In this document: positions 2,628 through 61,986 of the stretch, in pieces
How positions within the stretch are numbered: the first letter of the stretch is position 1
How the letters are laid out: the number at the start of each line of letters is the position of its first letter
Assembly (NCBI GenBank): GCA_001662655.1
Contig: KV460225.1
DNA length: 64,000 nt
Reading direction: 5' to 3' (one strand)
Origin: Pseudogymnoascus verrucosus
Taxonomy: Eukaryota
Made by a program: the position numbers and the translations under genes
The notes under the pieces: model-generated
Databases searched by the model: none
The model's input: the letters and a program-made list of their open reading frames with translations, nothing else
What the model was told of the DNA's origin: nothing

Positions 2628-3294
2628 TCAGATCTTTCCACCCCACCTCTTCTCCACACCCTTCTCCCTCTTCGGGTCCTCAATCTCCAAATCCCTCAAG
2701 TCAGCCACCATCCTCTGTAGGTCCGCATCGGCATCTGGTCTGTACCGCGTAACCTTCATAATATTCTTCGCTGTCATGTCGTTTACCTCCTGGCCAGCCT
2801 CTTGAACCCTAGCCAACGTCCTTGCAGTCATGGCAAAGCGCATATCCTTTGGCCCATCGACAAGCTCCAGGATCGCTGATGGCGCCTGATCGCCCTTTAG
2901 CGGCTCGATGCGCAGAACCCTCGTGTATCCACCCGGGCGTTCGGCGTAACGTTCGCGAAGCGGTCCAAAGAGTTTAGGAAGCAGGGAGTGTGGTGTCTAT
3001 CTGAAATTAGCCTTTTGGGGTCCCATCGTCTCTTTGCAGCCCAGCCGTGGTATCGGGGTGGGATAGGGGACTACTTACGAAGAAAATGCTCAGCGCTCTC
3101 CGCTTGCTGGCCTCTGTGTTCTTCTTCCCCAGCGTAATTAACTTCTCAGCTAACCGCTGTGCCTCCTTTGCCTTCGGCCATGTCGTCTGGATGGATTCGT
3201 GTGTGAAGAGGGAGGTGACCAAGTTACGGAGAAGTGCCTGTCTGTGTGCTGATGTGCGCCCGAGATGGCGATATTTCATGCGTCCTCCAGCCAT
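2628..3294 (-). CDS. MRPL8: Mitochondrial large ribosomal subunit protein bL17m; exons 3294-3079, 2996-2628
   Basis: L17 motifs [76 protein letters not shown] intron 3078-2997 keeps frame. Confidence 0.93.
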
Positions 3295-5142: not shown

Positions 5143-7461
5143 CTACAGGAAATCAAACGTATCCCCCTTCTCCATAACCATCTTCTCCACCCTCTCCGTC
5201 CCCGCAACCCTCTCTAACTTCATCACATCCCACTTACTAAACACAGCCCTCGCGCTCCCCTCACCCACCTCCAGCCTCCCCTCCTGCACGCTCCTCCCCA
5301 GATACCCGCCCACAATCTCCTTATAAAAAATCGGATTATCAGGCAACCCATACATAACCACCTTCCGCACCCCGCGAATCTGGTACCTCCTGAAATGGTG
5401 GGCTCGCTCCGTATACAGCAGCACGCTGTGTCGACCAGTAAGGAAATGCGAGCGAGCGCGCGCCACTTCGCGCACGGAGGTGTACTCGGAGATGCAGCCG
5501 AAGGAGAGGGTAGCCGTCGTCGGCGAGGAGGAGAAGTAGTTTCGCACGCGCACGAAGTCGAGGTAGCTGGGTATGAAGAGGAGCGTCCCGGCGGAATCGT
5601 GCTTATGCCTCATGAGCGCTGGGACAAGCGCGGATGTGAAGTATGTGAAGCGCGCGTCAGGCTCGGCGCTGATGGAGGGGGCGTCGATGCGGGAGAAGGT
5701 CTGCTTCACGCGGAGGCCGAGCTGTTGTAGGGCGCCTTGGTGGGTGGCGCCGATGCGGACCTTGCCTCGCCAGTTGCGAGATTTGGAGTGGAAGAGGGCG
5801 TTTAGCTCGGGGGTGTTGAAGGCGGAGAGGGCGATGGTCTGGCGGAAGTAGCGTGCAGCATCATCGAGGTACCAGCTGCGTACACGAGAGAAATCACAGC
5901 CGTGAGCCTCCTTGGGCTGCTGATTCATGTGCGAGAAGATGTACTCGACATGCTCCCAGTTCTGCATTAGGAGCGCATCGGCTTGGTCGACGATGACGAG
6001 CTCGATGGAGCTGAGGAAGTCGTGGTCGATTTTCTTGGAGTCTTCGGTTCCGATGGCCATTCGTAGGCCGAGGGGACTGGCGAGGATGATATCGGAGTTG
6101 TAGAATTGGGAAAAGTACTTTACGGTCTTGCGAGTGAACTTCAGTCCCAGGCGGAACATGTCATCGTCGTTTCCAGCGAACAGTTCTCGGAAATCTTCAG
6201 TTTTATCATCTGAGAATTTCTCTTCTTTGTCGACGTATGAATCGTCGAACCGCTTCCTGTTTTCTTGTTGCTCGGGCTCACATAATTTGTTGATCATGTT
6301 CACCATCCGCACACAGGACTCTCTTGTCGGCAGGAGCATGAGAACCTTGGGCCTTGTAAAACCCTGATCTCTAAGATCCAGATCTTCGTTGCCCTCTTCC
6401 TTGGCGAGGCGAGCGTTGTTTTTAATCACCTTATCTCTCGTCCTGGGTTATGTTAGTAGATAGCATATGGATAGATAGGTGGGAATCGTACTTGAAGATG
6501 TGGTTGACTGCGTGCAGGCACGTCAAACGGCGGAGGTTCTCAGCGTTCGCTGCTGTCCTATCGCAGAATAATATATCACGGTAGTTGAAAATCGAAGCCG
6601 CCATGTTCTGCTCTAGCGGATCGAAAGAGCCCCTTTGCTTTGTGACTGGGTCAATAAGCTTCTTCTTCAAGACGAGCCCAGCAGGACCGCTAATCGCCGC
6701 AGATAGTGTGGCTTGTTCTGGGGCATCTTTCTCTGGAACAGCAACGACAGCCTTTCCGACGTTCTTCACGATAATTTTTTTCGGCGACCACACCCCGTTC
6801 TTCAAGTTGTTGAGTCTCCTCGAGAGGACATTACTGTCAGGGTTGGCAAAATTGGCTTCAAACGGATCGGAAGCATCCTCGTCATCGTCCTCGTCTAAGG
6901 CGCCTTCCACTGCAGTCTCCGGCCCTTCCTCCTCTTCGTCCACGTCGTCGACATTGGTAATCTCTTCTTCATCCTCGCTATCCTCCGCCACCTGCTGCCC
7001 AGACGATGTATCGAGCTTACGTCGCTTCGCAGCCGGTGCTGAATCCGCCGCAAGGCTTTGCAGGAGCGCAGCGTAAGGCTTCACAGCCGAAGCCTGGACA
7101 ATGTCGTCGTCGTCAGACATCTCCTCGTCCGAGTCCTCTTCCTCAGAAGCCGACTCGTCCGAATAGTCCTCGCTGTCGCTTTCTTCCTCACTATGCGGCA
7201 TTAGCAATCACACCACCAGTATGCCAATTAGTATCAAACTTACTCTTCCTTCTTCTCCGCTAACCTCGCACTGTCGAATATCGGCTTCCCTCTTCCTCTG
7301 CCTCTGCCACCTCTACCTCCTCCTCTGCCTCCCCCTCCGCCTCGCGCTCCACCACGGGCTCCTCCTCTTGCTCCGCCTCTGCTGCTACCTCCGCGACCGC
7401 CACGGCCACCTGCGCTAAACCCTCGACCTCGAGCGCCGCCTCTGTTGCCGTGAAATGCCAT
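5143..7461 (-). CDS. UTP25: U3 snoRNA-associated protein 25; exons 7461-7244, 7190-6492, 6442-5143
   Basis: [54 protein letters not shown] motifs; two canonical introns join the three ORFs in frame; RGG-rich N-terminus. Confidence 0.95.
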
Positions 7462-8028
7462 TGTCGGATGTGTGCTTGGGAAGCTTGCTTGGTGCGCCGC
7501 GATTAGATTCTCAGAAAATTATTGGCGATAGCTGGGGTCCCTGGCGGTTTCTTATCTTAGCGTCTTATGGTGGGCGCCCGTCAAAATGTCATTCTGAGCT
7601 GGTTCAAGCAGTTCAAGGGAGGCTTCCTTACCACTCTAAAAGAGGAATATGATTATTTTAAATACGGAATAGGGTATGGCTAGATTTACTGGATAAGTGG
7701 CATCTTCAAGAGCTCAAATCACCTACATCTTCATATAAGGTCACATGGGATCGCTTCGAGGCTCTCGCTGCTTCCAAAGGATATCGACCATGGCATGGAT
7801 GATATACCATGGCCATCAGCGTTGTGAAACTCAAAAGGTATTTACAAGAAAGGCATCATCCATTCGAATCATCATGTCTTGTTCTCGTAAACCAGCCCCA
7901 GTATAGCATAAATGAATGAAACAACCAACAGACTAGCGTCGCAACCACATCAGAAAGCCATCACTGCTACCCTTCTCGTACTTTGTCGCTCTCGAGGAGG
8001 CAAGACAGCGTGGAAAGAGATTATACTC

Positions 8029-8168
8029 TCAGTTTGGGCAGCTCTGTGGCGACGTTAGTGGGAGCTCATTATCTCTCAGGGAAAGTGAAGCCTTACAGCA
8101 CCGCAAGAGCCGCAGGCCTTGGTTCCGTCACCGGCAGCACCGCACTTGGGGCATGTTCCTGGGTTCAT
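8029..8168 (-). CDS. 28-aa Cys-rich microprotein MNPGTCPKCGAAGDGTKACGSCGASCPN (zinc-ribbon- or metallothionein-like); exons 8168-8097, 8043-8029
   Basis: CAAAATG start context, 53-nt intron GTAAGG..ACTAAC..CAG (8096-8044), in-frame TGA, upstream TATATATA (~8294-8301), all five Cys as TGC; below the ORF-track cutoff. Confidence 0.8.
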
Positions 8169-9041
8169 TTTGAGATGATGGTATTCGAACTTGATCGTGA
8201 GAGGATCTTTATTGAGTTGTAGGATGCTGTATTGTTCAGGTTGTGCGTGGATATGTTCGGTTTGCCGACGAAGAGAAGGTGGGGGAGGAGGGGTATATAT
8301 ACAGCATTATCTGGGCGGGGTATTTACTTTGGTATGATAGGCAGGGAAGGAACGCTTGATGCTCGAAATACAAGACAGGCAAGGGCCGGGAAAGACGAGG
8401 CAACACTATAATAGCCACGAGACCACCAGGCTGACTTTCATCCTATGATTTTTGCTTATTTTGTCGTACTTGTCTGACGCTGCCTTGTGAAAGTGGGGGT
8501 TGGTTCCAAATGTCGGGCGTTCTCGAGTTCATTCAGTAATGGAATGGGTTTAATAGGCGGATATGCTCAATAGTAGACCGATTTATAAGTTTAATATGGA
8601 GAAGAGATATTATTCTAATACATGGATTAGTTAAGGAGAAAGCAGCCCGTAAGTCTGTACTTTCATATAGGAGGGGTCGAAAGAATAGAGCCAGGCCTGA
8701 GGAATGCTAGCGTTACTCCTCTAGTTTTCCCGTTACTGGCTGGATTCTTAGGTTATTTAAATCAAAAGAAAAGGAATAGCTTGTAATCCCCATAATACCC
8801 TAATAATAAATAAATTCGTTGAGTTTATTCCCAAATATTAACGTCAGTCGTTACTTCTCGGGTCGTTCTGGCTGGTATCCTTCTCCGTTATCTTAGCGCG
8901 ATCAGGGCTTAAATTCTTGGCACCCACAGCAAAAGATTGACTAGTACGGCGACGGCGAGGTCGAAAGAGTTTGGAGATCCCCCACGACGCCTCACGCCTA
9001 ACTCATCTACGATCTCAACAGATCCATTCAATCCGCACAAT

Positions 9042-10171
9042 ATGGCGGTCGCAGCTGATTCTTTCCTCCATCTCGCCAGGCCACTCGGGCCCACGGCAGT
9101 TGGCATTCAACCCACCACCGCCCCGCTCAATGTTATCGTCCAGCCACAGGTTTGTTTGTACATATCAGGAAGCCGTGAAATTATGCTCATTTGAACCACC
9201 AGGTCGTTTTCTCCATCTTAGATCACGCCCTCCGCCGCGACCCGGCATCGAACCGCGTTATTGGTGCCCTCCTGGGTGTCCGCTCCGAAGATGGAATGGA
9301 AGTCGAGGTCCGCAACTGTTTCGCCATCAACCACACCGAGACGGAGGAGCAGGTCGAGGTCGATGTCGAATACCAGAAGAACATGCTTGCGCTGCAACTG
9401 AAGGCCAACCCGCGCGAGGTCCTCCTTGGGTGGTACACGACCAGCCTCGAGCTGAACAACTTCAGCGCTCTGATCCAGAACTTCTTTGCCAGCTCCGAGA
9501 CCGGCACCTTCCCACACCCGGCCATCCACTTGACCGTCTCGACAGAGGCAGGCAAGGAGATCGAGGCCAAGGCTTACATCAGCGCACCCGTAGGCGTGAA
9601 TGCCGAGCGTGCGGCTGAGAGCTGTCTCTTCATCCCCGTCCCATACGAGATCCGATACGGCGAGGCAGAGAAGAGCGGCCTCGAGCTGATCTCCGGCGCA
9701 AAGGACGTCGATGCCCGCGCTGCACCAGTCGTCACAGACGCCGAGAGCCTCGAGCGCGCGATTGAGCACACTCTGGACCTGTTAGAACGCGTCTCCGAGT
9801 ACGTCTCGTCCGTTCTTGATGAGGAGCGCGAGCCAAACAACGCCCTGGGTCAGTTCCTCATGAACGCCCTCTCGTTAGCACCAAAGGTCGACGCCGCAGA
9901 TATCGAGCGCGACTTCAACAACCACATCCAAGACATCCTTGTCGTCTCCTACCTCACCAACACCATCCGCACACAAATCGATCTCTCGCAGCGCCTGGCC
10001 ACGGCCACGATTACTCTTGGCAGCACCGACGCGATAGGCGGTAACACAGGAGGAGAGGGCGGCGAGAGAGGCGAGCGTGGGGAGCGTGGAGGAAGGGGTG
10101 GAAAGAGGGGCGGACGCGGTGGACGTGGAGGTGGACAACCGAGGGAGCCGAGGGAGCCAAGAGAGGAGTAG
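9042..10171 (+). CDS. eIF3f: Translation initiation factor eIF3 subunit F (MPN/JAB1 family); exons 9042-9149, 9203-10171
   Basis: [52 protein letters not shown]; intron 9150-9202 in frame. Confidence 0.93.
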
Positions 10172-39910: not shown

Positions 39911-42900
39911 TTAACCACCCCTCCCCACTCCCCTTCCTCTCCCCCGTCCCCCCCCCCTTCCCCGTCTCGCAAACCCCAACCCCAACCCCACCGTCCCGCC
40001 CCTCCCAGCAACAGGGACAACCCTCCGCGCCGGAATCTCTTCATCTGCATCCCCCCCATCATCCGATGACTCCTCCGACGTCGGGCTTCCCACCTTCTCA
40101 ATTCCCCTTTTCTCCCCTACCCCACTCGTCTGCTGAGGTGAGAAGCGGGGGAGGCGGATTTGCATCCCTCCTCCACCCCTCGGCGGTGCCGTGGCGGCTG
40201 GTTTCACACTCACCGCGCGAGTCTCCGCAAGTTTTGTTGCGGGAACTGTAGCTGGTGCAGCTTTAACTGGGGGAGGTGGAGACGGTGAGACAGACTCCTG
40301 CTCTTCCTCCTCATCAAGAAACATAGCCTTAAACCCCGCACTCCCACCCGCTACAGCCGGTTTCGGGGGTCCCCCACGCTTAACCCTCGCCCTCTCCATC
40401 TCTTCTTTCATTTCCTCCTCGGCTAGACGCATCGCTTCCATCTTCGCATCCCTGTAGCCGGTTGAGATGACACTCCCCGCGCTCGACGCTGCTCCCGAGG
40501 GCGGGGGTTGTTGCGATTCCGCTCTGTCGGCGACGGAGGGGGTGGCGGATTGGTAGTGCGAGGAGTGCGAGGAGTGCGAGGAGAAGAATCCCCCATCATC
40601 GTTATCGTCGTTGTACACAATCTCACCATCATCATTATCGTCGAACCGGATAGGACTATCTGTACTCACACCCGGCACCGGACGAGGAGAGAGGGATGTG
40701 CTACCATCCATATCCCTACTCCTCGGCCTCGCATCCGCGTCCTTGTGTATCGAGTTCGCTCGGGATGAGGCGCGCAATGGAGAAATAGTGATAGTCTCCG
40801 CGGCCGTCGTCTCAGCGGGTGGTGGATTCTCCGTTTTGATGGGAACAGAGTTCACAGCTGTAAACGAGTTGGTGGGTTCCTCGACTTCATCGCTGTCATC
40901 GGAAACGAATAGACTAGACCCCCTCCTCTTTTTCTCGAGTCTCGTATCCGCCTCAGCATTTTGTGCTTCTGGAGAGCGCGGGCGTTTATTAGCTTGTAAT
41001 CCCTCATCCACTCCTAAACTCGTAGATTTGCGCGGTGGTCGTCCCGGGTCTCTCTTCTGAGCGATGGCTGGTTCGGCAGCTGGAGCATCTGGGGCTGCAG
41101 GTTTCTGAAACATCCCAGATCTCCGCATTCGTGTGCCAAGTGGTGGTGGTGCTGCTGTTGTTGTACCGACGCCGTTCTCAGGCGCGGGCGTTGTAGAAAC
41201 AGCAACCCCCGATCGACGCGGTCGCCCAGGTCCGCGTTTCTGAATCTCTGGGCTGCTGATGGTGGGCTCGGGCGCAGATTCAGAAACTTCAGACCTACGC
41301 GGGCGACCTCCTATGAACCTCCGGTTTTCCGGGCCGCTGATGAGGTGGGGTTCAAGCGCTGGAGGTTCCGAAATCCGGGATTTCGGTGGTCGACCCGGTC
41401 CACGCCTCTGTATTTCTGGACTGTTGCTGAGGATAGACTCGCGCGCAGGTTCAGGAACGTCGGATCTGCGCGGTGGTCGACCCGGTCCGCGCTTGGGCGT
41501 ATCTACGTTGTTGGCGAGAGATAGTTCGGGTGCCATAGTTGCTGAAACTTGGGATCTGGGAGGCCGTCCTTGTGATTTCCGCGGCTCAACTACGATGGTA
41601 CCTTCCTTCGCCGGAGGAGCAGATATCGATCCACGAGGGGCACGCTCCTTCTCCTGCGGTGCAGATACCGAACCACGAGGGTAACGCCTTACTGGAACAA
41701 TAGTGTTGATCTCCGGCTCCTCTTCCTCATCCTCATCATCCTGAAGGTATACCGCATTCTCGCGAACATCAGAAGTGACGACCATAGAATCAACCCCCAC
41801 CTGCTCCTTCCTCCCCAAACTTCCCCTCCCCGGTCTCGGATTATGTCTGGGCGCCTCCTCCTCACCAAACGCCTGCAGCCTCCCCAAGAACTCCTTATGA
41901 TTCGGCAGCAACAGCTTGACTTTACACGGTTTCCCGCCTTCAAGTTTATTCTTCGTCATAAAAAACTTCCCCTCCCTCTTCGCATCGGTCAATTTCTGCT
42001 TCTTCTGCGCGGCTTGGAACTGTAAATACGCCTCATCTACTGGACCCTTCAGGCTCTCACGCTGATGCTTCTTGTTCGGACGCACCAGAAGCCCATCTTC
42101 AGAGTCTGATTGTAGGCGCGGGTACGCGGCGTCCTGGTGTTCGTCTTCGGCGGCGGCGTCGGGGGCGTCGAAGAGGATCTTGTCGGCGTCGTTGCGCTGC
42201 TGGTAGTACCCTATTCCCATCATGCGCTCGCGGGGGATGCCTTGGGGGTCTGGGTAGACGGAGTCGGGATTTTTCATTACGTCGGCCGGGGATGCGAATG
42301 CGGGGTTCGCATCTACGTCTATGGTTGGGGGTAGCTTGGAAACGCCTGTTCCTCCAAACATGGGTGCAGTAGGCGCCCCTCCATCTCCACCAGATAACAG
42401 CGCGGGGTCGATCGCATCGCCCACAGGCTGCATGTCCATGTGCTGACTCCCCATACGCTGACCCATCTCAGAGTCTTCCTCCAGCGTCTCATCACGGGAC
42501 TTCTCAGCCTGCGCCTTCTCCATCAACTTCTTCATCCTTACGGAATCCTTCGGCGCTGTATCCTCCTCCCCCTTCAACCAAGCGAGGTTCGTGCGGCTGA
42601 AATCGACCAAGCTTTCTACACTGCGTGGATCAGCGACCATGCGTGTGTCGTGGCCAAGTAATGTGCCTTTCGGCTGGTAGGGAATCTGCTTGGACGAGTT
42701 CACTCTACGGCACGCGCCGCAAGAACAGATCAACCGGCATTTCGGGCATTGCCAGTCCAACGTCTCCATGATCTTCTCTGGCTTGATGTCAAAGGCCCGC
42801 CAAAGAGTACCATAACAGTACGAAAGTGGACACGTAGTGCAGAAAGCAAGTTTCCAGTCCGCCTCCATTTTTCTGCAGATATGGCAAGTTGACCGGTGCT

Positions 42901-44718
42901 TCTTCTCAGCGAGGGATTGCCGCTTGCCTTTCCTCTTCTTTGGTCGGCCTTCATCATCGGCTTCTGGTTCGACGTCGGAGTCGCCAGGAAGCGGGTCGAG
43001 GACATGTGGCTTCGTTATGTCGCGCCACGGCCTCTTTTTGAGTTGTTCTTGACATATCTGAGCAATTGGCTTCTTGCCAGAGTGCTGCCTTTCTATCTCC
43101 AACGTTTGAGGTGAGGTGTTATCAACGTATCCATCAATGTACAAGACCATTGCACGCCATACGTCGTAGCGCTTAGTTAACTCGGGCCAGCGCCATTGCT
43201 CAACCCACTGTAGATTTGACAAACAGGCGCAAGATCGACCCATAGCGTAACAATCCATACATATATCATACGTATCCTCATCGCCATTCTCTAGCTCTCC
43301 AACACAAGTCTTGCATGTCAAGAACCGATTGAAAATGTTGCACCGGCAGTAAGAGCAAGTGACGTTGCTATCGAACTGAATAAACTCGACGTTCTTCTCC
43401 TTCGGCATATCAGGCGAAAACATCTCGCTCACTAAAATCGTCTTGTAGAGCCCGAAAAGGCGTTTGAAGTCTCGCTGTAGCTGTCTCACCCTCGGAGCAA
43501 ACCTGACCGGCTCTGACTGATAAGCACCAAAACCAGACTCCTCTTCCTTTTCTGTCTTCTGCAGATCGGTGTAGTATCTCAACAGCGAATAGTATACAAT
43601 AGCTTTACACTTATATTGTTCGTCCCTGCAGACCATGCGCGCGCGTGGCAAGGCTTCGGAGAGCGCCATCTCAAGCGTCTCCACCGTCGTGCGGTTCCAT
43701 GCCACCTTCATCGTCCGCGTGCCCCTATTCCAGACCTGATGCGGCGCAAGCGGCGGGATGAGAATGAAATCTCCCACCTTCTGCTCAACTATGTAGACTG
43801 GGAAAGGCGCCTTTTTCCAGGCAACAATCTGGGCAAAGTGGTTCTCAACCTCGATATCGTGACCGAGCATAGACAAGAAGTACTCGCTAACAACCTCCCT
43901 ATCCTTCGTCTCGGTCATGAACCAGATAGAACTCCCCGGCTTCTCGCCCTTGCCCACATCAGACGTCTCGACCATGATATTCTGCCCAACCGTTGCGCAC
44001 ATCTCTCGGTGGGCGGGGGTGTAGGTCCCTTCGTGGCCGATATAGCACATCATGTTCTCCGCGCGCATCTCCGGTGGTAGATTGCTCATCAGGTCGCCGG
44101 CTGGAGCAATTCCTTGCCCCATAACGAGGTGGTTGTATTTGTCCCTCTCGTGCACGGATCCTGGGCCGCCTTTCTCTCCAACGCAGTTGTTGAGGTATAA
44201 GAGTGTCTGGGGAATGTATTCGCGTAATTGGTGATCCCATGCTTCGGGGCAATCGATATCCTTGAGATAGAGGCGCTGACGCTTGGCATCACGGAAATTC
44301 GTAGGTGTCCATTGCCTCGTCAGTTTCTCTAGAGAATTGAGGTAATGGCCGATTGTCATGGGGACGTTGGTATGATTAGCAATGTCTCGAACTTGCTCCT
44401 CTACTGAATGTTAGCAGGTGATATTGAAGTGAGGCGGACATACTGACGCTTCTTGCCCAGGTTATCTTGCATCCAGGTCGCGCTGTACAGCCACGGCGGG
44501 AGATCACTCTCCCAACCTTCCACGACCAGAGGTTTGCCGCCCTGGATAACATGCAACAGGACCAGCTTTTCGAATTCTTGTAGGCCCAGTTCCCTGATCT
44601 GGTCGGTGGAGATACGAATCACATAGTCGAAGTTGGGCGTCTTCTCAACGAGGGCGCTGAGGTCGAGATCCGGCGGTATGGGATCGAACATCGCCTGGGG
44701 GTGAAGATTGGAAGGCAT
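39911..44718 (-). CDS. dmm-1: JmjC-domain chromatin protein with Cys-rich fingers (zf-4CXXC_R1-like) and AT-hook-like repeats; probable orthologue of Neurospora DMM-1; exons 44718-44448, 44400-39911
   Basis: JmjC with LYLKDIDCP, TPAHREMC (HxE) and APHQVWN (His); CSYCRC..CKTC..CMDC cluster; CHIC..CTTC..YCYGTL..WQCPKCRLICSCGAC; intron 44447-44401 in frame. The orthology is from recalled domain architecture only. Confidence 0.82.
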
Positions 44719-45601
44719 CTTGCTTGGTCCCTAGCTTCTAGGCGCAACTTGGATGGGTACGAGTATGATCTCCGGCCAAGCCCCCCCTCACTTCAGCGAG
44801 AGAAAGCTATGGCGGAGAGCAATTCATTAGAGGTGAGATGATGGAGGCAAAGGTAGAGCCAGAGTTTGTAGTGAATGCGACAAGATTGTGGTTGTAAAGT
44901 TGAGCTGTGGTTGCGCCGTTCGAAGGTTGTCTGTCGAGTGGGTCGTGTATAAATTGATGAAACCAGGTCCGGAAAGCCCGCGTTGGTTGCGCGTTGTGGC
45001 AAGACTCCAAGCTCTTTATAAAGACAGAGCTTATTTAGAGAGTAAACTCGCGCAATGCGATTGTAATAAAACGGTGAACCACCGAGGCAAGCATCTATCA
45101 ACTCGAGGTAAGAGTCGCAATGTTTGGAGCACCCAAATCAGGCTAGCCTGAGCCTTGCCAGGGCGCTTTGGCCACAACCGGGAATCTTCAATGATGGGAC
45201 GATGAATTCCAGCATCAAAACCATAAATCGCCGACACAAAAACCTTGTCACTTTGTAAGTGGATAGCTCTTTATTTAGAATGCACATTCCAGCAGGATAT
45301 TATACGTTCCATTATCTCCTTTGGCTAGCTTCTGGCTCTCAATTCAACTTTCGCAAGTCACGGGATCCCTCGGAGGAGGATGGGGAAGCTTGAGGCGAGC
45401 TCTAGGAGATCTTTCAAAAGACATTGGACGCTCGTTGCTTATTTTGTTGGATATAGAGGATGTATTTATAGGGTGCCTGCTATTATTTATTGCTTTGATT
45501 CTTACCGCGAGGCTATCCAGCCACCGTCCAGCGCTATCATCTTTGTCGCGTCCAATTGATAAAGAATTATACTAACTTCGCTGATACAGGGGATAAGGGC
45601 C

Positions 45602-46840
45602 ATGTTGGTCAAGCAGGCACTATGCGGCCTCCCAAGAGGCTACAGCAATGCCCTGCTTAGGCCAGCATACATCAGGGCTGCAAAACCCCTCTGTTCCTTG
45701 GTCACCAGGAACCATCACGTCTCTCGGGCTAGACCTCCTAAAGCGGCTTCTGTCTGTACTGCACTCACTAGCCGCCGCCAGCTATCAGTATCACAGACCG
45801 CCGCCTCCCCAACAGCAGTGGCAGAGGCAGCAGATCCCGATGCATTGCCGGTGACACCCTATACGCCACCAACCACTGGCCTCCTCTCTGTCCTTCCAGC
45901 ATCATGGGTTCCATATGCAGAACTAATCCGCCTGGACAAGCCGACGGGAACCTACTACCTTTACTGGCCCTGTCTGTTTTCTACCCTCCTCGCTGCACCC
46001 CTCGCCATGCCCATGGCCACGCCCCTTTCAGTCGTCGGGACCTCCCTCCTCTTCTTCAGCGGCGCCATCATCATGCGCGGCGCAGGCTGCGCAATCAACG
46101 ATCTATGGGACCGGAATCTAGACCCACACGTGCGTCGCACGCGTCTCCGGCCAATAGCGCGCGGTGCCATAACTCCGTTCAAAGCCCTCGCCTTCACTGG
46201 CACCCAGCTCTTTGCAGGTCTCGCGATTCTTCTACAATTCCCAACGCAGTGCCTCTGGTACGGAATCCCGAGTTTGGTGTTAGTAGCGAGCTACCCGCTC
46301 ATGAAGCGCATTACGTACTACCCGCAGATGGTCCTAGGATTAACCTTTTCCTGGGGTGCCATCATGGGTTTCCCGGCTCTCGGCGTCGACTTGCTGCAGA
46401 ATAACGCGGCTCTGGCAGCGGCTGGCTTGCTTTATGCGTCGAATAACGCGTGGGTCGTCTTATACGATATGATTTACGCGCATATGGATATCAAAGACGA
46501 CGTCAAGGCTGGCATTAAAAGCATCGCCCTCGCTCACGATAAGGATACCAAGGCAATTCTCTCTGGGTTGGCCGTCACTCAGATCGGGCTTCTGGCTGCG
46601 GCTGGATTTGCAGCTGGATCCGGGCCAGCTTTCTTCATCGGTAGCTGTGGAGGTGCGGCTCTGACGCTTGCTGTGATGATCAAGAAGGTCAATCTAAAGG
46701 ATGCTAAGAACTGTTGGTGGTGGTTTGTCAATGGCTGCTTGTATACGGGCGGAATCATCTCAGCGGGAATGGGAGCGGATTATTTGATCCGATATTATGG
46801 AAACGAAAAGTTGGAGTCACAGAAGCTGGAGTCAGAGTAG
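45602..46840 (+). CDS. COQ2: 4-hydroxybenzoate polyprenyltransferase, mitochondrial (UbiA family)
   Basis: ELIRLDKPTG, MRGAGCAINDLWDRNLD, RTRLRPIARG, YDMIYAHMDIKDD motifs; Arg/Ser-rich transit peptide. Confidence 0.96.
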   Translation: MLVKQALCGLPRGYSNALLRPAYIRAAKPLCSLVTRNHHVSRARPPKAASVCTALTSRRQLSVSQTAASPTAVAEAADPDALPVTPYTPPTTGLLSVLPASWVPYAELIRLDKPTGTYYLYWPCLFSTLLAAPLAMPMATPLSVVGTSLLFFSGAIIMRGAGCAINDLWDRNLDPHVRRTRLRPIARGAITPFKALAFTGTQLFAGLAILLQFPTQCLWYGIPSLVLVASYPLMKRITYYPQMVLGLTFSWGAIMGFPALGVDLLQNNAALAAAGLLYASNNAWVVLYDMIYAHMDIKDDVKAGIKSIALAHDKDTKAILSGLAVTQIGLLAAAGFAAGSGPAFFIGSCGGAALTLAVMIKKVNLKDAKNCWWWFVNGCLYTGGIISAGMGADYLIRYYGNEKLESQKLESE

Positions 46841-55393: not shown

Positions 55394-56615
<1,222 letters not shown>

Positions 56616-57661: not shown

Positions 57662-60600
57662 ATGTTTTCACCAGCGACGACCAACGGCACTCCAGCTGCC
57701 AATACTCGCAACGCCAGGCGCAGGCCGCGCCCAACATCTTCAGAGAACATTGCGCTACAACCCAAAGCCAAAAGGCAACGCAGCAGCTTACATGATAATA
57801 CCTTCGTTGCCCCCGATGCCTCCCCTGAGATGCAGGAGGTCAAGGCGAAGAAGTCAGCAGCGGGAGTCGCACGGCACGAGAGCATCGCAGAACCCCAGGC
57901 AACAATAAGACGCGATCTCACGGTTAGAGGCAAGAAGCCCAAGACTGCTGAGAGAACTGGCAAGGGAGATGGAAGCACGGTTTTGGTAAATGATTTAATT
58001 GGATTGAAAGCCTCGGTTTGGATGCTAACGGGGCTCATAGACAAGCAATGATGTTTACACTGTCAGCAGGCTTCCTGCTTTACCAGATCGCTTACAATCC
58101 ACGACTACAGGTATGAATATCTCAGAGATTGAATAAAGGATGAACTGACCCTTTGATGCACAGGTAGACAACATGGCGCGATATACTCCGACAGTGGTTA
58201 CGCCCTCGCTCTCACGACCACTCATGCGATTGTCTGGCCCTACGCTCTCAACACCACGACCCCAGAGACCTTCACCTTCGCCCTACCTTACCCAGCGAAA
58301 CATACATCCGAGCACCTCCCCCTTGGATCCTTAGTCTCGGCCTCAGCAAGCACCCCTGAGCCTGGCCTCGTCGTGGTGATGCCCTCAAGTGGCAAGATCA
58401 CATACTGGGAATCGATCGCGAGCGCAGCCACCCTGGACCTCATACAACAGCAGAGAAACGGCGTTGAGCTTACAATCCCTGGCCTACTGCATGGAGAGGT
58501 TGTAATCCAGATTCTGAACGCCGAATCGGCTGGCTTTTTGCTGTCCTTCAGCAGTGGAAGGTTGGCGTATATGAGCGTACGAGACGGCCAGGGGAGACCA
58601 GCGATATCTGTACAGTTTTTGCGCGGCACGAGCGGTGCTGGCAATGGAGGGATATTTGGAAGCATTAGAAATGCTCTCAGCAGCTCGTCTTGGCGCGGAG
58701 ACCTGGCAGCTGCCAGGGCTGGCCCGTCATTGAAGCCAGGGGAGCGTGATATCGTGAGCGCATCTTCGAAGGGAAGATTGCAAGCCTGGAGTCTTCATCG
58801 AGGCGGCCACAATACCCTCGAGGCGGAAGGAGATGTCAGGGAGTTGATTGTGGAGCAGTTGAAGCGCACCGACAAGAGTCTTGAGAGCCTCGACCTTGAG
58901 TCGTTTGAAGTCCTCGACTTTTCATTTGCGCCACAAGCCGGTGATAGGGAAGATTCAACAGCTTTGACCTACCGCGACGACAACGGCACGGAGCTTCTCA
59001 TGCTGACGTCTCTTGGTGGGCATGGGATCTGCCACTATGCCCTTGTGCAGGTGTTCCTTCGTCAAAGGGATATCATTGTCAGCAACGTTCACCACCTCCG
59101 CTCCTACTCAACCCCAGTCAGCCGAACCTCCACGTCCAAGCCGAGACTGCATCTGCCAAAGCCAGGCGTTGCAGCATTTGTCGTCTTTGACCGCGCCGTC
59201 GTGGTGACGTCAATGGTCCAAGAGCCAGATTCCCCAGGTCAACAACTCCGCCCGGGAACCAATTATTTTGAGGATGTCGTAGACTTTAGGACAGATGCCG
59301 GTGTGGAGATTACCGGCTCTGGGCTGGAAGAGCCACATACACCCTCCCATGGTGCAGAGGACAGCCGCTCGAGGCGCCACAAGGCCAAGTTCCCAGCTGT
59401 GGTTCTACTGGTTAAGGGTGGCGGTATAATCCGTATTGCCACGACAGACCCGAAGAAGTTTACAGCCGGGGAGGCACCACAGGTTACGGCTAAGAGCAAG
59501 CTGGATCAAGCAGTATTCTTTGGCATTCTCGAGAACAACCCATTGAGTTTCACCGGACGGTCGGAAATACAGTTCTCACCCGAGGAAGTTGGCCAGGCTG
59601 CCCTACAGCTCAGTCACGAGGTTTTGAGCTCTACGACAGCGCATATTCCTTCTATCCCGGCGTCGATTGAACATAATCTACGCGTACGGGCACAGGCACT
59701 GCATAGCCTCGCGACGCACATCAAGAAGATGAATGTCGACCTTGACCGTCTTACGAAATGGAAGCTCTTATGGGACGCGGAGAAACTGAACGGTGCAAAG
59801 GGTGCATGGAACAACTACGATACCCTCATAAGCTCCAAACCCGTCGGTCAGAAGCGCAGCTTATGGAATGACATCGTCGAGTGCCTGCACGAGGAGTACA
59901 AGTTAATGCCGTCGAAGGAATTTGGCGAGGTGGATCGTGTTCGCCACTACTTCATCCACGACATCCATCGCTTCGAGATGGTTGTGCCTTGGGCCTTCCA
60001 TGCAGTGAAGTTGAGATACGAAGAGTCCGAGCTGGGCCAGCACAAGATCGTCGAGCTCGTCAGCGAGGCCAATGATCTCCTAATCGGAGCCTTGGCTGGA
60101 GCCTACGACTTCCGGACTGAAAACCTAGCTCTGTACGGGCTCCAGGGCGAAGATGTCCAGAACGGCATCCTGATGCAAAACTACCAGGGCATCCCGGAGC
60201 CCTGGACATGCCAGCAATACGTAGCGGATAACGCAAAGAAGCAGACTGATCTCGCCATAGGAATGGTACGACAAAACTGGCCCCCCGCGGCCGGCGAAAA
60301 CCAACCCGACCCGGACCTCGTCGACAAGATCCGCACCGAGTGTCCCGAGATGCTCGATCTCGCCTGCCGCTCCACCACCGAGAAGTACCGCTGGTACCTC
60401 GGCCAGGATGACAAGAAGCGCCACAGCCAGGGTCTGCAGATGCAGCACTCGTACTTCAAGGTGCGGGAGGGGCAGATCTACAACCTTTCCGAGATTGGAC
60501 TTGTGGACGAGGGCATCGAGTTAGCGGAGAAGCACAGGGTCTTCGACACCCTCGTCCCCCTCATCGTCGAAGAAATCCAGCGCACAAATGAAGCCATCGC

Positions 60601-61986
60601 CGAAACCGAAGCCACGCCCGACGGCGACGCCACGGACCTCAAAGCTCGCGTCGCCCGTCTCCAAGCACAGGTAGAGGGCTACTACGACCTCTTCGGCATG
60701 GAGTGGGCTAAGTCGCTGTACTCATACTACATCAAAGAAGGCGAGCTCTTCGCTCTCCTCAGCGACAACGACACGCACCAGAAATACCTGACCGCCTTCC
60801 TGCGCAGCAAAAAGGAGTACGCGAAAGTGTCGTGGATCAACGAGGTCACCCAGGAGAAAGACTACCACCGCGCCGCGGCTGAACTCCTCGACCTCGGACT
60901 GCACCGCGAACGCGACCTGTGGAGCAAGAAAGTGCAGCTCAGCATTGGAAAACTGGCAAGACTGGCGGGGCAAGCGGGGAGTGGACTGAGAGTCGCGGAA
61001 GGGGGGGAGGAGATGAAGGAGACGGAGGCGCAGTTGGAGGTTATTAGGATTCAGGGGCTTGTGCATAAACATGTCCGCGGTGCGGTTAAGGGGGCGATTG
61101 ATGATACAGCCGAACGCCAGCTTGCGCTCGAGGTTTACGATAACCCCTCTCTCCGCGGGAAGACCGCTTTGGCTACCGTCTTGCACGAGAAGCTTGGCTG
61201 GCTGCTCGAGCACAAAGCTATGGGTGCCCTAGATCTAGTCGACCTGTTGACACTCCTCGGTCCGGATAGTAGGGGAGAGGGAGGGGGAGTGTTGGGGGGG
61301 GAGGAGTTCCATTATGCGCTGCTTGCGCTTAATGCAGCTGGACCGGCAGAGGGAGAGGAGTTTAGACTCGCGGAGCAGGGGGTGTGGAGGAGGTGTATGC
61401 TGAGAGATGATTGGGCCGCGATTAATGATACGGATGCGAAGAGTGATGAAGAGGTTAGGTGGAGGTTGGAGGGGACGGCGTTGTATAGGACGTTGAAGGG
61501 GTGTGTTCGGGATCGTGAGTTTTTCCCTTTTCTTTTCTTGTCCCCCGTTCTCCTCCCCGCAAGCAGTTTGCGTCTAGTAATAAGAGTATGAGCAGAAAAC
61601 TAACAAAAACAACAGGCCTCTTCGAAACCCCCTCCCGCCTCCACATCCACACCCCCTCCTCCCTCTCCACCACCACCCCCACCCTGGACACCCGCTACCG
61701 CTCCCTCGACTCCGGCGTCCGCGCCCCCCTCCTCTCGGACCTCTCCAGCGAAGACAGCGCCCTAAAATCCTACATCACCCACGCGCGCCTCGGGAAATGG
61801 TTCGAAGGCGCTCTGGACCTAGCGAAGCGCTCCGTGGAAGAGGAGAGAATGGAGAAGGAGGAGGGAGAGAGGGGGTTGAGGGATGTGGCGGAGCGGTTGA
61901 GGGAGATTGAGGCGGAGATTGAGGAGAGGGAACGGGGGGTGGCGAGGGAGATGTTGAGGTGTAGACCTAGGGGGGGGAGGGTGTAG
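57662..61986 (+). CDS. NUP133: Nucleoporin Nup133/Nup132; exons 57662-57985, 58041-58110, 58164-61514, 61616-61986
   Basis: About 1370 aa after splicing; beta-propeller-like N-terminus (EPGLVVVMPSSGKITYWESI), helical C-terminus (LAEKH, KVSWINEV, QLSIGKL, WRRCMLRDDW..INDT); three canonical introns in frame. Confidence 0.9.

Follow-up and report, generated by a model that had tools for sequence, protein, structure and literature searches.

The window, the whole 64,000-nt stretch of DNA analyzed here, comes from a 30-Mb fungal genome with introns. It carries a filamentous ascomycete gene that is single-copy, has two exons, and codes for a protein of only 28 amino acids once spliced. The gene is real and spliced, and it belongs to an uncharacterized family that is widely conserved over Sordariomycetes, Dothideomycetes, Eurotiomycetes, and Leotiomycetes and is mostly mis-annotated. 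Our best explanation of the whole, on which we are evenly divided, is that the product would be a free zinc-ribbon module that binds a partner protein and is placed under carbon control by a C2H2 factor of the CreA/Mig1 class. The peptide has cysteines at positions 6, 9, 19, 22, and 26, 2 lysines, no arginine, no aromatic residues, and a pI of about 7.6. The window has a single match to the strict M..CPxCG..CxxCG pattern, 150 third-order Markov simulations produced none, and a paralogue search of the genome with the window's own query returned only this locus (a search with a Dothideomycete query returned nothing, missing even this locus, and is uninformative).

The initial annotation had read a TATA box, an ATG in a CAAAATG context, 24 codons, a 53-nt intron, and a short last exon from the letters alone, and all of these are confirmed in the sequence (Table 1), with 15 nt between the CTAAC branch and the intron end. 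Pfam identifies UTP25, an MPN protein, and AIM5 among the neighbors. Between the microprotein gene and the divergent MPN gene lies an AT-rich stretch (8520-8850) whose sequence has diverged in the aligned part of a syntenic metagenomic locus, L042. Ordinary fungal genes found by Pfam elsewhere in the window code for a JmjC plus zf-4CXXC protein (39911-44410, minus strand), a UbiA prenyltransferase (45563-46840, plus), an ALA dehydratase (55707-56615, plus), and a Nup133/Nup170-type nucleoporin (58157-61591, plus).

Table 1. Features at the microprotein locus, in window coordinates. X1, X8, and X9 are public sequencing runs; L042 is the only one of 61 related metagenomic loci that shares neighbors with the window.
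Feature	Position	Strand	Remarks
GC box ACCCCGC (reverse GCGGGGT), putative CreA/Mig1-type C2H2 site	8315..8321	-	152 nt upstream of ATG
Ace1-like match, rejected as chance	8301..8310	-	One of 54 consensus matches in window; unenriched; lost in L042
TATA box	8301-8294	-	TATATATA in sequence; TA-rich element aligned at equal place in L042
5' UTR, minimum extent (without mapped start site)	8169..8249	-	X9 RNA contig 8099-8249, X1 up to 8209; ATG-free
Coding exon 1, 24 codons	8097..8168	-	Cys 6, 9, 19, 22 form two knuckles; ATG at 8168, CAAAATG context
Intron, 53 nt, phase 0	8044..8096	-	GTAAGG donor, CTAAC branch at 8058-8054, CAG acceptor
Coding exon 2, four codons x-C-P-x plus TGA	8029..8043	-	Bears fifth conserved Cys
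3' UTR, extent under RNA contigs (end unmapped)	7776..8028	-	X9 7776-8003, X1 to 7796, X8 to 7878
UTP25 gene, downstream neighbor	5143..7207	-	Pfam; synteny in L042 only
JAB/MPN plus MitMem_reg protein (Rpn8/eIF3f type), divergent upstream neighbor	9179..10171	+	Pfam; synteny in L042 only

Parts of the window are contained in 24 public runs, and the contigs of 4 of these (X1, X8, X9, and X19) were compared with the gene. The spliced joint predicted by the initial annotation over 8096-8044 is present in 2 of the 4, which come from two studies. A contig of X8, which is RNA on record and more than 99% alike, joins 8043 to 8097 and skips exactly 53 nt, with 78 letters on the shorter side of the joint, and a contig of X1, which we guess to be RNA, makes the same 53-nt skip from 8097 to 8043 with 113 letters on its shorter side. 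The RNA run X9 covers 8099-8249 and 7776-8003 with no piece over the joint, and X19 covers the whole region with contigs that are unspliced over the intron, as expected of DNA. Contigs of this kind record presence in libraries, and strand, transcript ends, and level are not derivable from them. The spliced span under the RNA contigs amounts to 421 nt, and its first ATG starts the 28-aa frame; all other ATG-started ORFs in it are of 17 aa or less.

The architecture of the gene is conserved far beyond this genome. A metagenome scan recovered 61 related loci, in 60 of which a GT stands at the identical codon boundary right after exon 1; the exception, L018, runs from exon 1 directly into xCPx-stop and is thus an already spliced form. 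An AG-xCPx-stop exon follows in 57 of the 61 loci (54 with a branch match and 3 without), and, L018 aside, the remaining loci are 2 whose contigs end too early and L048, which is unassigned. The same xCPx-stop test found nothing at 453 donor-like control sites. Homologues with conserved cysteine spacing and a conserved intron position, the comparison proposed at the outset, are thus widespread. The protein is conserved as a protein and under purifying selection: pN/pS is about 0.13 over 45 unique 17-codon blocks, a value with a downward bias, since part of each block was fixed by the scan pattern, and a comparison of all 28 codons between the window and L042 gives 10.3 changes over 19.3 synonymous sites and 5.7 over 64.7 non-synonymous sites. 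The synonymous variation includes both families of Ser codons.

These observations bear on the possibility that the frame is a chance ORF in non-coding RNA or intergenic DNA. Support for transcription in this organism consists of contigs, that is, of presence in RNA libraries, which leaves some room for such a reading, but it is extremely improbable given the exact splice joint, the protein-level conservation with synonymous variation just described, the absence of any Rfam match between 7200 and 9200, and the listing of an orthologue, FVEG_16989, in a table of a proteomics study (PMC7807804).

The unspliced frame used as query returned 13 matches, of which 4 were clear homologues and two of these were named (Sordaria and Copromyces), and profile searches gave 29 and 162 matches (120 listed, with a tail of bacterial zinc ribbons). 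A single 40-aa query against a set of 5.8 billion sequences returned no candidate; the profiles did find members. The family pattern is C-x2-C-x8/10-C-x2-C-x3-C-P in proteins of 27-38 aa. Among the matches listed are Sordariomycetes (e.g., Neurospora, Podospora, Pyricularia, Fusarium, Trichoderma, and Xylaria), Dothideomycetes (e.g., Elsinoe, Parastagonospora, and Cercospora), Eurotiomycetes (Penicillium and Talaromyces), and a Leotiomycete (Blumeria). With the queries used, no yeasts were among the matches listed, and 62 pattern matches in prokaryotic genomes yielded 0 confirmed members. In viral contigs, the 2 loci found both contain an unrelated 257-aa ORF with only the last knuckle in common. 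Two oddly filed sequences do belong to the family: P0094, under "Candidatus Bathyarchaeota archaeon," reads through the intron and sits on a contig of 3.7 kb, and P0099, under a Mycena species, has 92% local identity to a Sordariales-type query. Both are probably ascomycete DNA within those assemblies.

Nineteen full-length members share an invariant CPKC, one Lys, both later Cys, one Gly, and the terminal Cys-Pro, so that the fifth Cys is present in 19 of 19; some homologues have Ser or Asn in place of the Gly after the first Cys pair. Of 46 distinct exon-1 peptides, 41 carry a His ahead of the first Cys. A His-less subgroup with an M-(N/S)-P start comprises the window gene itself (8097-8168), L042, L048, L057, and L058, and its existence implies that this otherwise conserved His is dispensable. 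Another subgroup carries an N-terminal extension of 4-11 aa, mostly with (L/I)V(D/N) just before the His (exon 1 of L006, L008, L020, L027, L029, L045, and L046; P0047 and P0065).

The stored protein models of this family are largely wrong. Of 149 proteins examined, 123 fit the core pattern, and 72 of these run on with the Val that a translated GT donor encodes (at least 1 of the 72 is probably outside the family). Another 36 end in xCPx, 27 of them with a length of 27-38 aa and 9 with long N-terminal additions; one stops at exon 1, and 14 are bacterial ribbons or other models. Among the classable models, then, 72 read through the intron and 36 have the correct end, about two-thirds being wrong. 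The tails must be artefacts, since intron lengths across the loci (48-256 nt) are spread evenly over the three frames. The suspicion that gene callers would miss the gene is therefore borne out for the greater part of the family, although right models of 27-38 aa exist in several fungi, labelled hypothetical or "zinc-ribbon domain-containing." Five family-like sequences (P0061, P0073, P0075, P0080, and P0095) carry automatic labels as ribosomal proteins S27ae or L37e, and such pipeline assignments hide the family further. With so many models wrong, comparative and proteomic work largely fails to see the family. We found no study of it in open full texts, searched also with member gene names other than those of N. 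crassa and Aspergillus, so an earlier description may exist. Where the open texts mention names of member genes, they do so in table rows (PMC1764740; PMC7807804), apart from one FG04399 string match in an aquaculture paper.

What the peptide folds into is suggested by cysteine spacing, profile matches, and one structure model. Window exon 1 scores 16.9 bits against Pfam Zn_Ribbon_1 (PF13240), below the cut-off of 25, and 16 of the 19 full-length members match at E ≤ 0.05 (best 2e-6) this model, which is also precomputed on several homologues; the spacer between the knuckles is 8-10 residues. For the 35-aa homologue of Fusarium venenatum, an AlphaFold model reached a pLDDT of 69 and a pTM of 0.35. 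Foldseek gave no significant match to it (best E 1.3), with RanBP2/NZF-type fingers recurring in the top rows (rmsd 1.1-1.5 Å over 22 columns), and in a comparison with 48,161 chains all 7 rows at Z ≥ 2 were zinc fingers of this type, at non-significant Z values of 2.0-2.7. Sequence matches in the PDB are generic knuckles (e.g., methionyl-tRNA synthetase, eL37, and S27ae), and a homodimer-with-zinc prediction, in which the alignment was not used, scored 0.01 and counts neither for nor against a dimer. The spacing, the sub-threshold Pfam matches, and the weak fold match are consistent, if weakly, with a one-metal Cys4 ribbon rather than a CxC metallothionein, and we consider it very likely that the protein would adopt a zinc ribbon with one Zn(II) on four Cys. 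The earlier description holds: this cysteine microprotein stands alone, is spliced and conserved, and has the spacing of a zinc ribbon, with the splice joint in contigs and homologues in four classes.

A different use of the cysteines would be a minimal metal buffer or chaperone, an atypical metallothionein-like peptide that would serve homeostasis by reversible binding of Zn, Cu, or Cd to its five Cys (and to the His in members that have one), possibly in dimeric form. Cysteine makes up 5 of the 28 residues, the window peptide has no aromatics, and a His stands ahead of the first Cys in most members; fungal Cu-thionein units likewise have small residues, a conserved Lys, and a Pro behind their last Cys (PMC4755600). 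We nevertheless regard a buffer as unlikely, as five Cys give a low capacity, the three CxC of the Neurospora type have no counterpart here, the window's own subgroup lacks the His, and Ace1-, MRE-, Mac1-, and ZafA-type consensus sites are unenriched in 36 family promoters. An iron or redox peptide, with rubredoxin-like Fe on the CPxCG knuckles, an Fe-S center on C-x2-C-x3-C-P, or a thiol oxidant switch or buffer, has in its favor the invariance of the fifth Cys and a weak Pfam match to RUBY_RBDX (E 0.006-0.05). The ferredoxin motif also ends in a Cys spacing like that of the last three cysteines here. Yet none of the 19 members has a Fer4-type Pfam match, the aromatic core that rubredoxins carry is missing, and SreA- and Yap1-type consensus sites are unenriched, all of which makes this improbable.

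For regulation, 36 promoters were kept from the 61 loci plus the window, dropping those with less than 400 nt upstream, L018, and near-duplicates, and were set against 30 rough control promoters and 30 downstream regions; the loci are mutually related. A de novo 6-mer search of the 36 placed CCCCGC far above all others (p 1e-13). It occurs in 28 of 36 family promoters, against 8 of 30 control promoters and 4 of 30 downstream regions, and the longer ACCCCGC in 19 of 36 against 0 of 30 controls. The box is proximal, lying at -350 to -80 in 28 of 36 and at -620 to -350 in 4 of 36; 8 of 36 are without a match, and other SYGGRG variants are much rarer. In the alignment with L042, TACCCCGC and the TATA element are kept amid diverged DNA, whereas the Ace1-like site is lost; a consensus TATA at 60-300 nt is present in a minority of family promoters only. 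The Ace1-type site lends no support to the proposal of copper regulation: matches occur in 17 of 36 family promoters and 19 of 30 controls, and their number in the window is that expected by chance. MRE, Mac1, ZafA, Yap1, HSE, Crz1, PacC, CRE, CCAAT, SreA, and STRE consensus sequences were likewise not enriched in the 36 promoters over the 30, and GATA sites were borderline (27 of 36 versus 16 of 30, p 0.06).

Read from its letters, the conserved promoter signal is a putatively carbon-linked GC box rather than a copper site. C2H2 factors of the Adr1/Tda9 class recognize boxes much like it as well. Mig1/CreA proteins bind GCGGGG, according to a preprint (bioRxiv 10.64898/2026.05.08.723686), and transcription under a CreA/Mig1-class factor, tied to carbon status, seems to us somewhat probable. 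The box says little about a specific pathway, because no promoter motif is more conserved than CCCCnC across the Fusarium genome as a whole (PMC2853525, Table 1). An outside hint compatible with carbon control comes from F. verticillioides, where a list of proteins identified by iTRAQ gives FVEG_16989 a change of -2.15-fold under the glucoside phloridzin, two xylanases also being down (PMC7807804, Table 2); its 35-aa product is a family member, and the row may rest on another form of the UniProt entry. MPSS counts for MGG_07177 (appressoria to mycelia 52:0 and 303:0; PMC1764740, Table 3) were rejected as a signal of appressorium specificity, as a ribosomal gene in the same table stands at 3240:0. 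No expression rows for the gene appeared in the supplement text of PMC11563359, PMC3037901, PMC3276559, PMC7333239, and PMC3814326, most of which contains little table text, so this is no evidence of absence, and their full data tables may bear on regulation.

The GC box could also be taken to favor a very small zinc finger that binds ribosomes or nucleic acid in the manner of eL37, eL40, or eS31 and is regulated together with ribosome biogenesis, as CCCCnC is enriched in Fusarium nucleolar genes (PMC2853525). Weak profile matches to eL37 and S27ae (E 0.06-0.2), the automatic "ribosomal protein" labels of some members, and the UTP25 gene adjoining in the window point the same way. However, these profile matches span generic knuckles only, UTP25 is adjacent in 1 of 61 loci, and a peptide with so few basic residues and a near-neutral pI is a poor candidate, so that we find this reading distinctly improbable.

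We return, then, to the free zinc-ribbon module. The 28-aa protein, without a signal peptide, would fold around one Zn(II) through the knuckles Cys6/9 and Cys19/22 into a ribbon of the Zn_Ribbon_1 or RanBP2/NZF kind and act as a small cytosolic plug-in module, attaching to a partner protein and modulating it, while a CreA/Mig1-class factor at the GC box would set its transcription by carbon status. Modulation through protein binding is the usual role of such zinc ribbons, and it is the most likely one for a peptide that is too small for catalysis and, with 2 Lys and no Arg, too weakly basic for good nucleic-acid binding. The Cys4 ribbon leaves over the invariant fifth Cys; the C-terminal Cys-Pro, together with the N-terminal His of most homologues, may be an exposed ligand or thiol switch. 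That the protein is a small protein-binding modulator in which the fifth Cys serves as a spare ligand or a thiol switch we hold at a little under even chances. A bolder version, which we offer as speculative and doubtful, is that this Pezizomycotina-wide family of free zinc ribbons of about 30 residues, kept even in powdery mildews, may be a carbon-status-controlled metal/thiol switch, in which the fifth Cys, encoded in its own 4-codon exon, and the N-terminal His would form a second, exchangeable site that gates binding to a core cellular target. If this is true, filamentous fungi would possess an unrecognized layer of regulation, and the family would exemplify a functional one-domain zinc-ribbon micro-protein in eukaryotes.

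In any case, a gene that is conserved with its intron over four filamentous ascomycete classes, that occurs even in the obligate biotroph Blumeria, and for which we found no described function merits attention. The corrected gene model allows the family to be defined and free-standing zinc-ribbon micro-proteins to be tested directly in eukaryotes, and the family's regulation can first be approached through the conserved promoter box.

Among the closest known systems are the domains Zn_Ribbon_1 (PF13240) and DZR (PF12773), which share the CPxC-x8/10-CxxCG spacing and a Lys two residues before the third Cys. Those ribbons are normally domains of larger proteins, whereas here the ribbon is the whole protein and the exon with the fifth Cys-Pro lies outside the model. 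RanBP2/NZF fingers (Nup153, TAB2, Npl4, and ZRANB2) have the signature W-x-C-x2-C-x3-N-x6-C-x2-C. They are the best, though non-significant, structural look-alikes of the homologue model, but the fungal alignments lack the Trp before Cys1 and the conserved Asn after Cys2. Cu-metallothioneins of the Neurospora type (26 aa) resemble the peptide in size, small residues, and richness in Cys, but they have 7 Cys arranged as three CxC plus one (PMC4755600), against five Cys and no CxC in the window peptide, so that the contrast with classical metallothioneins drawn in the initial annotation stands; nor are copper-factor sites enriched upstream of the fungal genes. The terminal Cys-Pro recalls the metallothionein units of Tremella and Cryptococcus, and fungal metallothionein units share its small residues, scarcity of aromatics, and Pro behind the last Cys (PMC4755600), a point against the ribbon reading.

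By analogy, the family is best read as a eukaryotic counterpart of the archaeal one-domain C(P)xCG zinc-finger micro-proteins. Those of Haloferax volcanii are shorter than 70 aa, have two C(P)xCG-type motifs and no annotated function, and are presumed to be interaction modules in the account of PMC6562870, and the functional studies of one-domain zinc-finger micro-proteins that we consulted are archaeal (PMC6562870). In both groups the finger is the whole protein, of at most 70 aa (28 aa here, 27-38 aa in 27 full-length homologues), with two C(P)xCG-type motifs, which in the window gene are the CPKCG and CxxCG of exon 1. The fungal proteins differ in being eukaryotic, encoded in two exons, 27-38 aa long, and extended by the invariant terminal Cys-Pro, and the likeness found is limited to the generic knuckle, an archaeal HVO_0416 cluster scoring only 0.86 in the Atlas.
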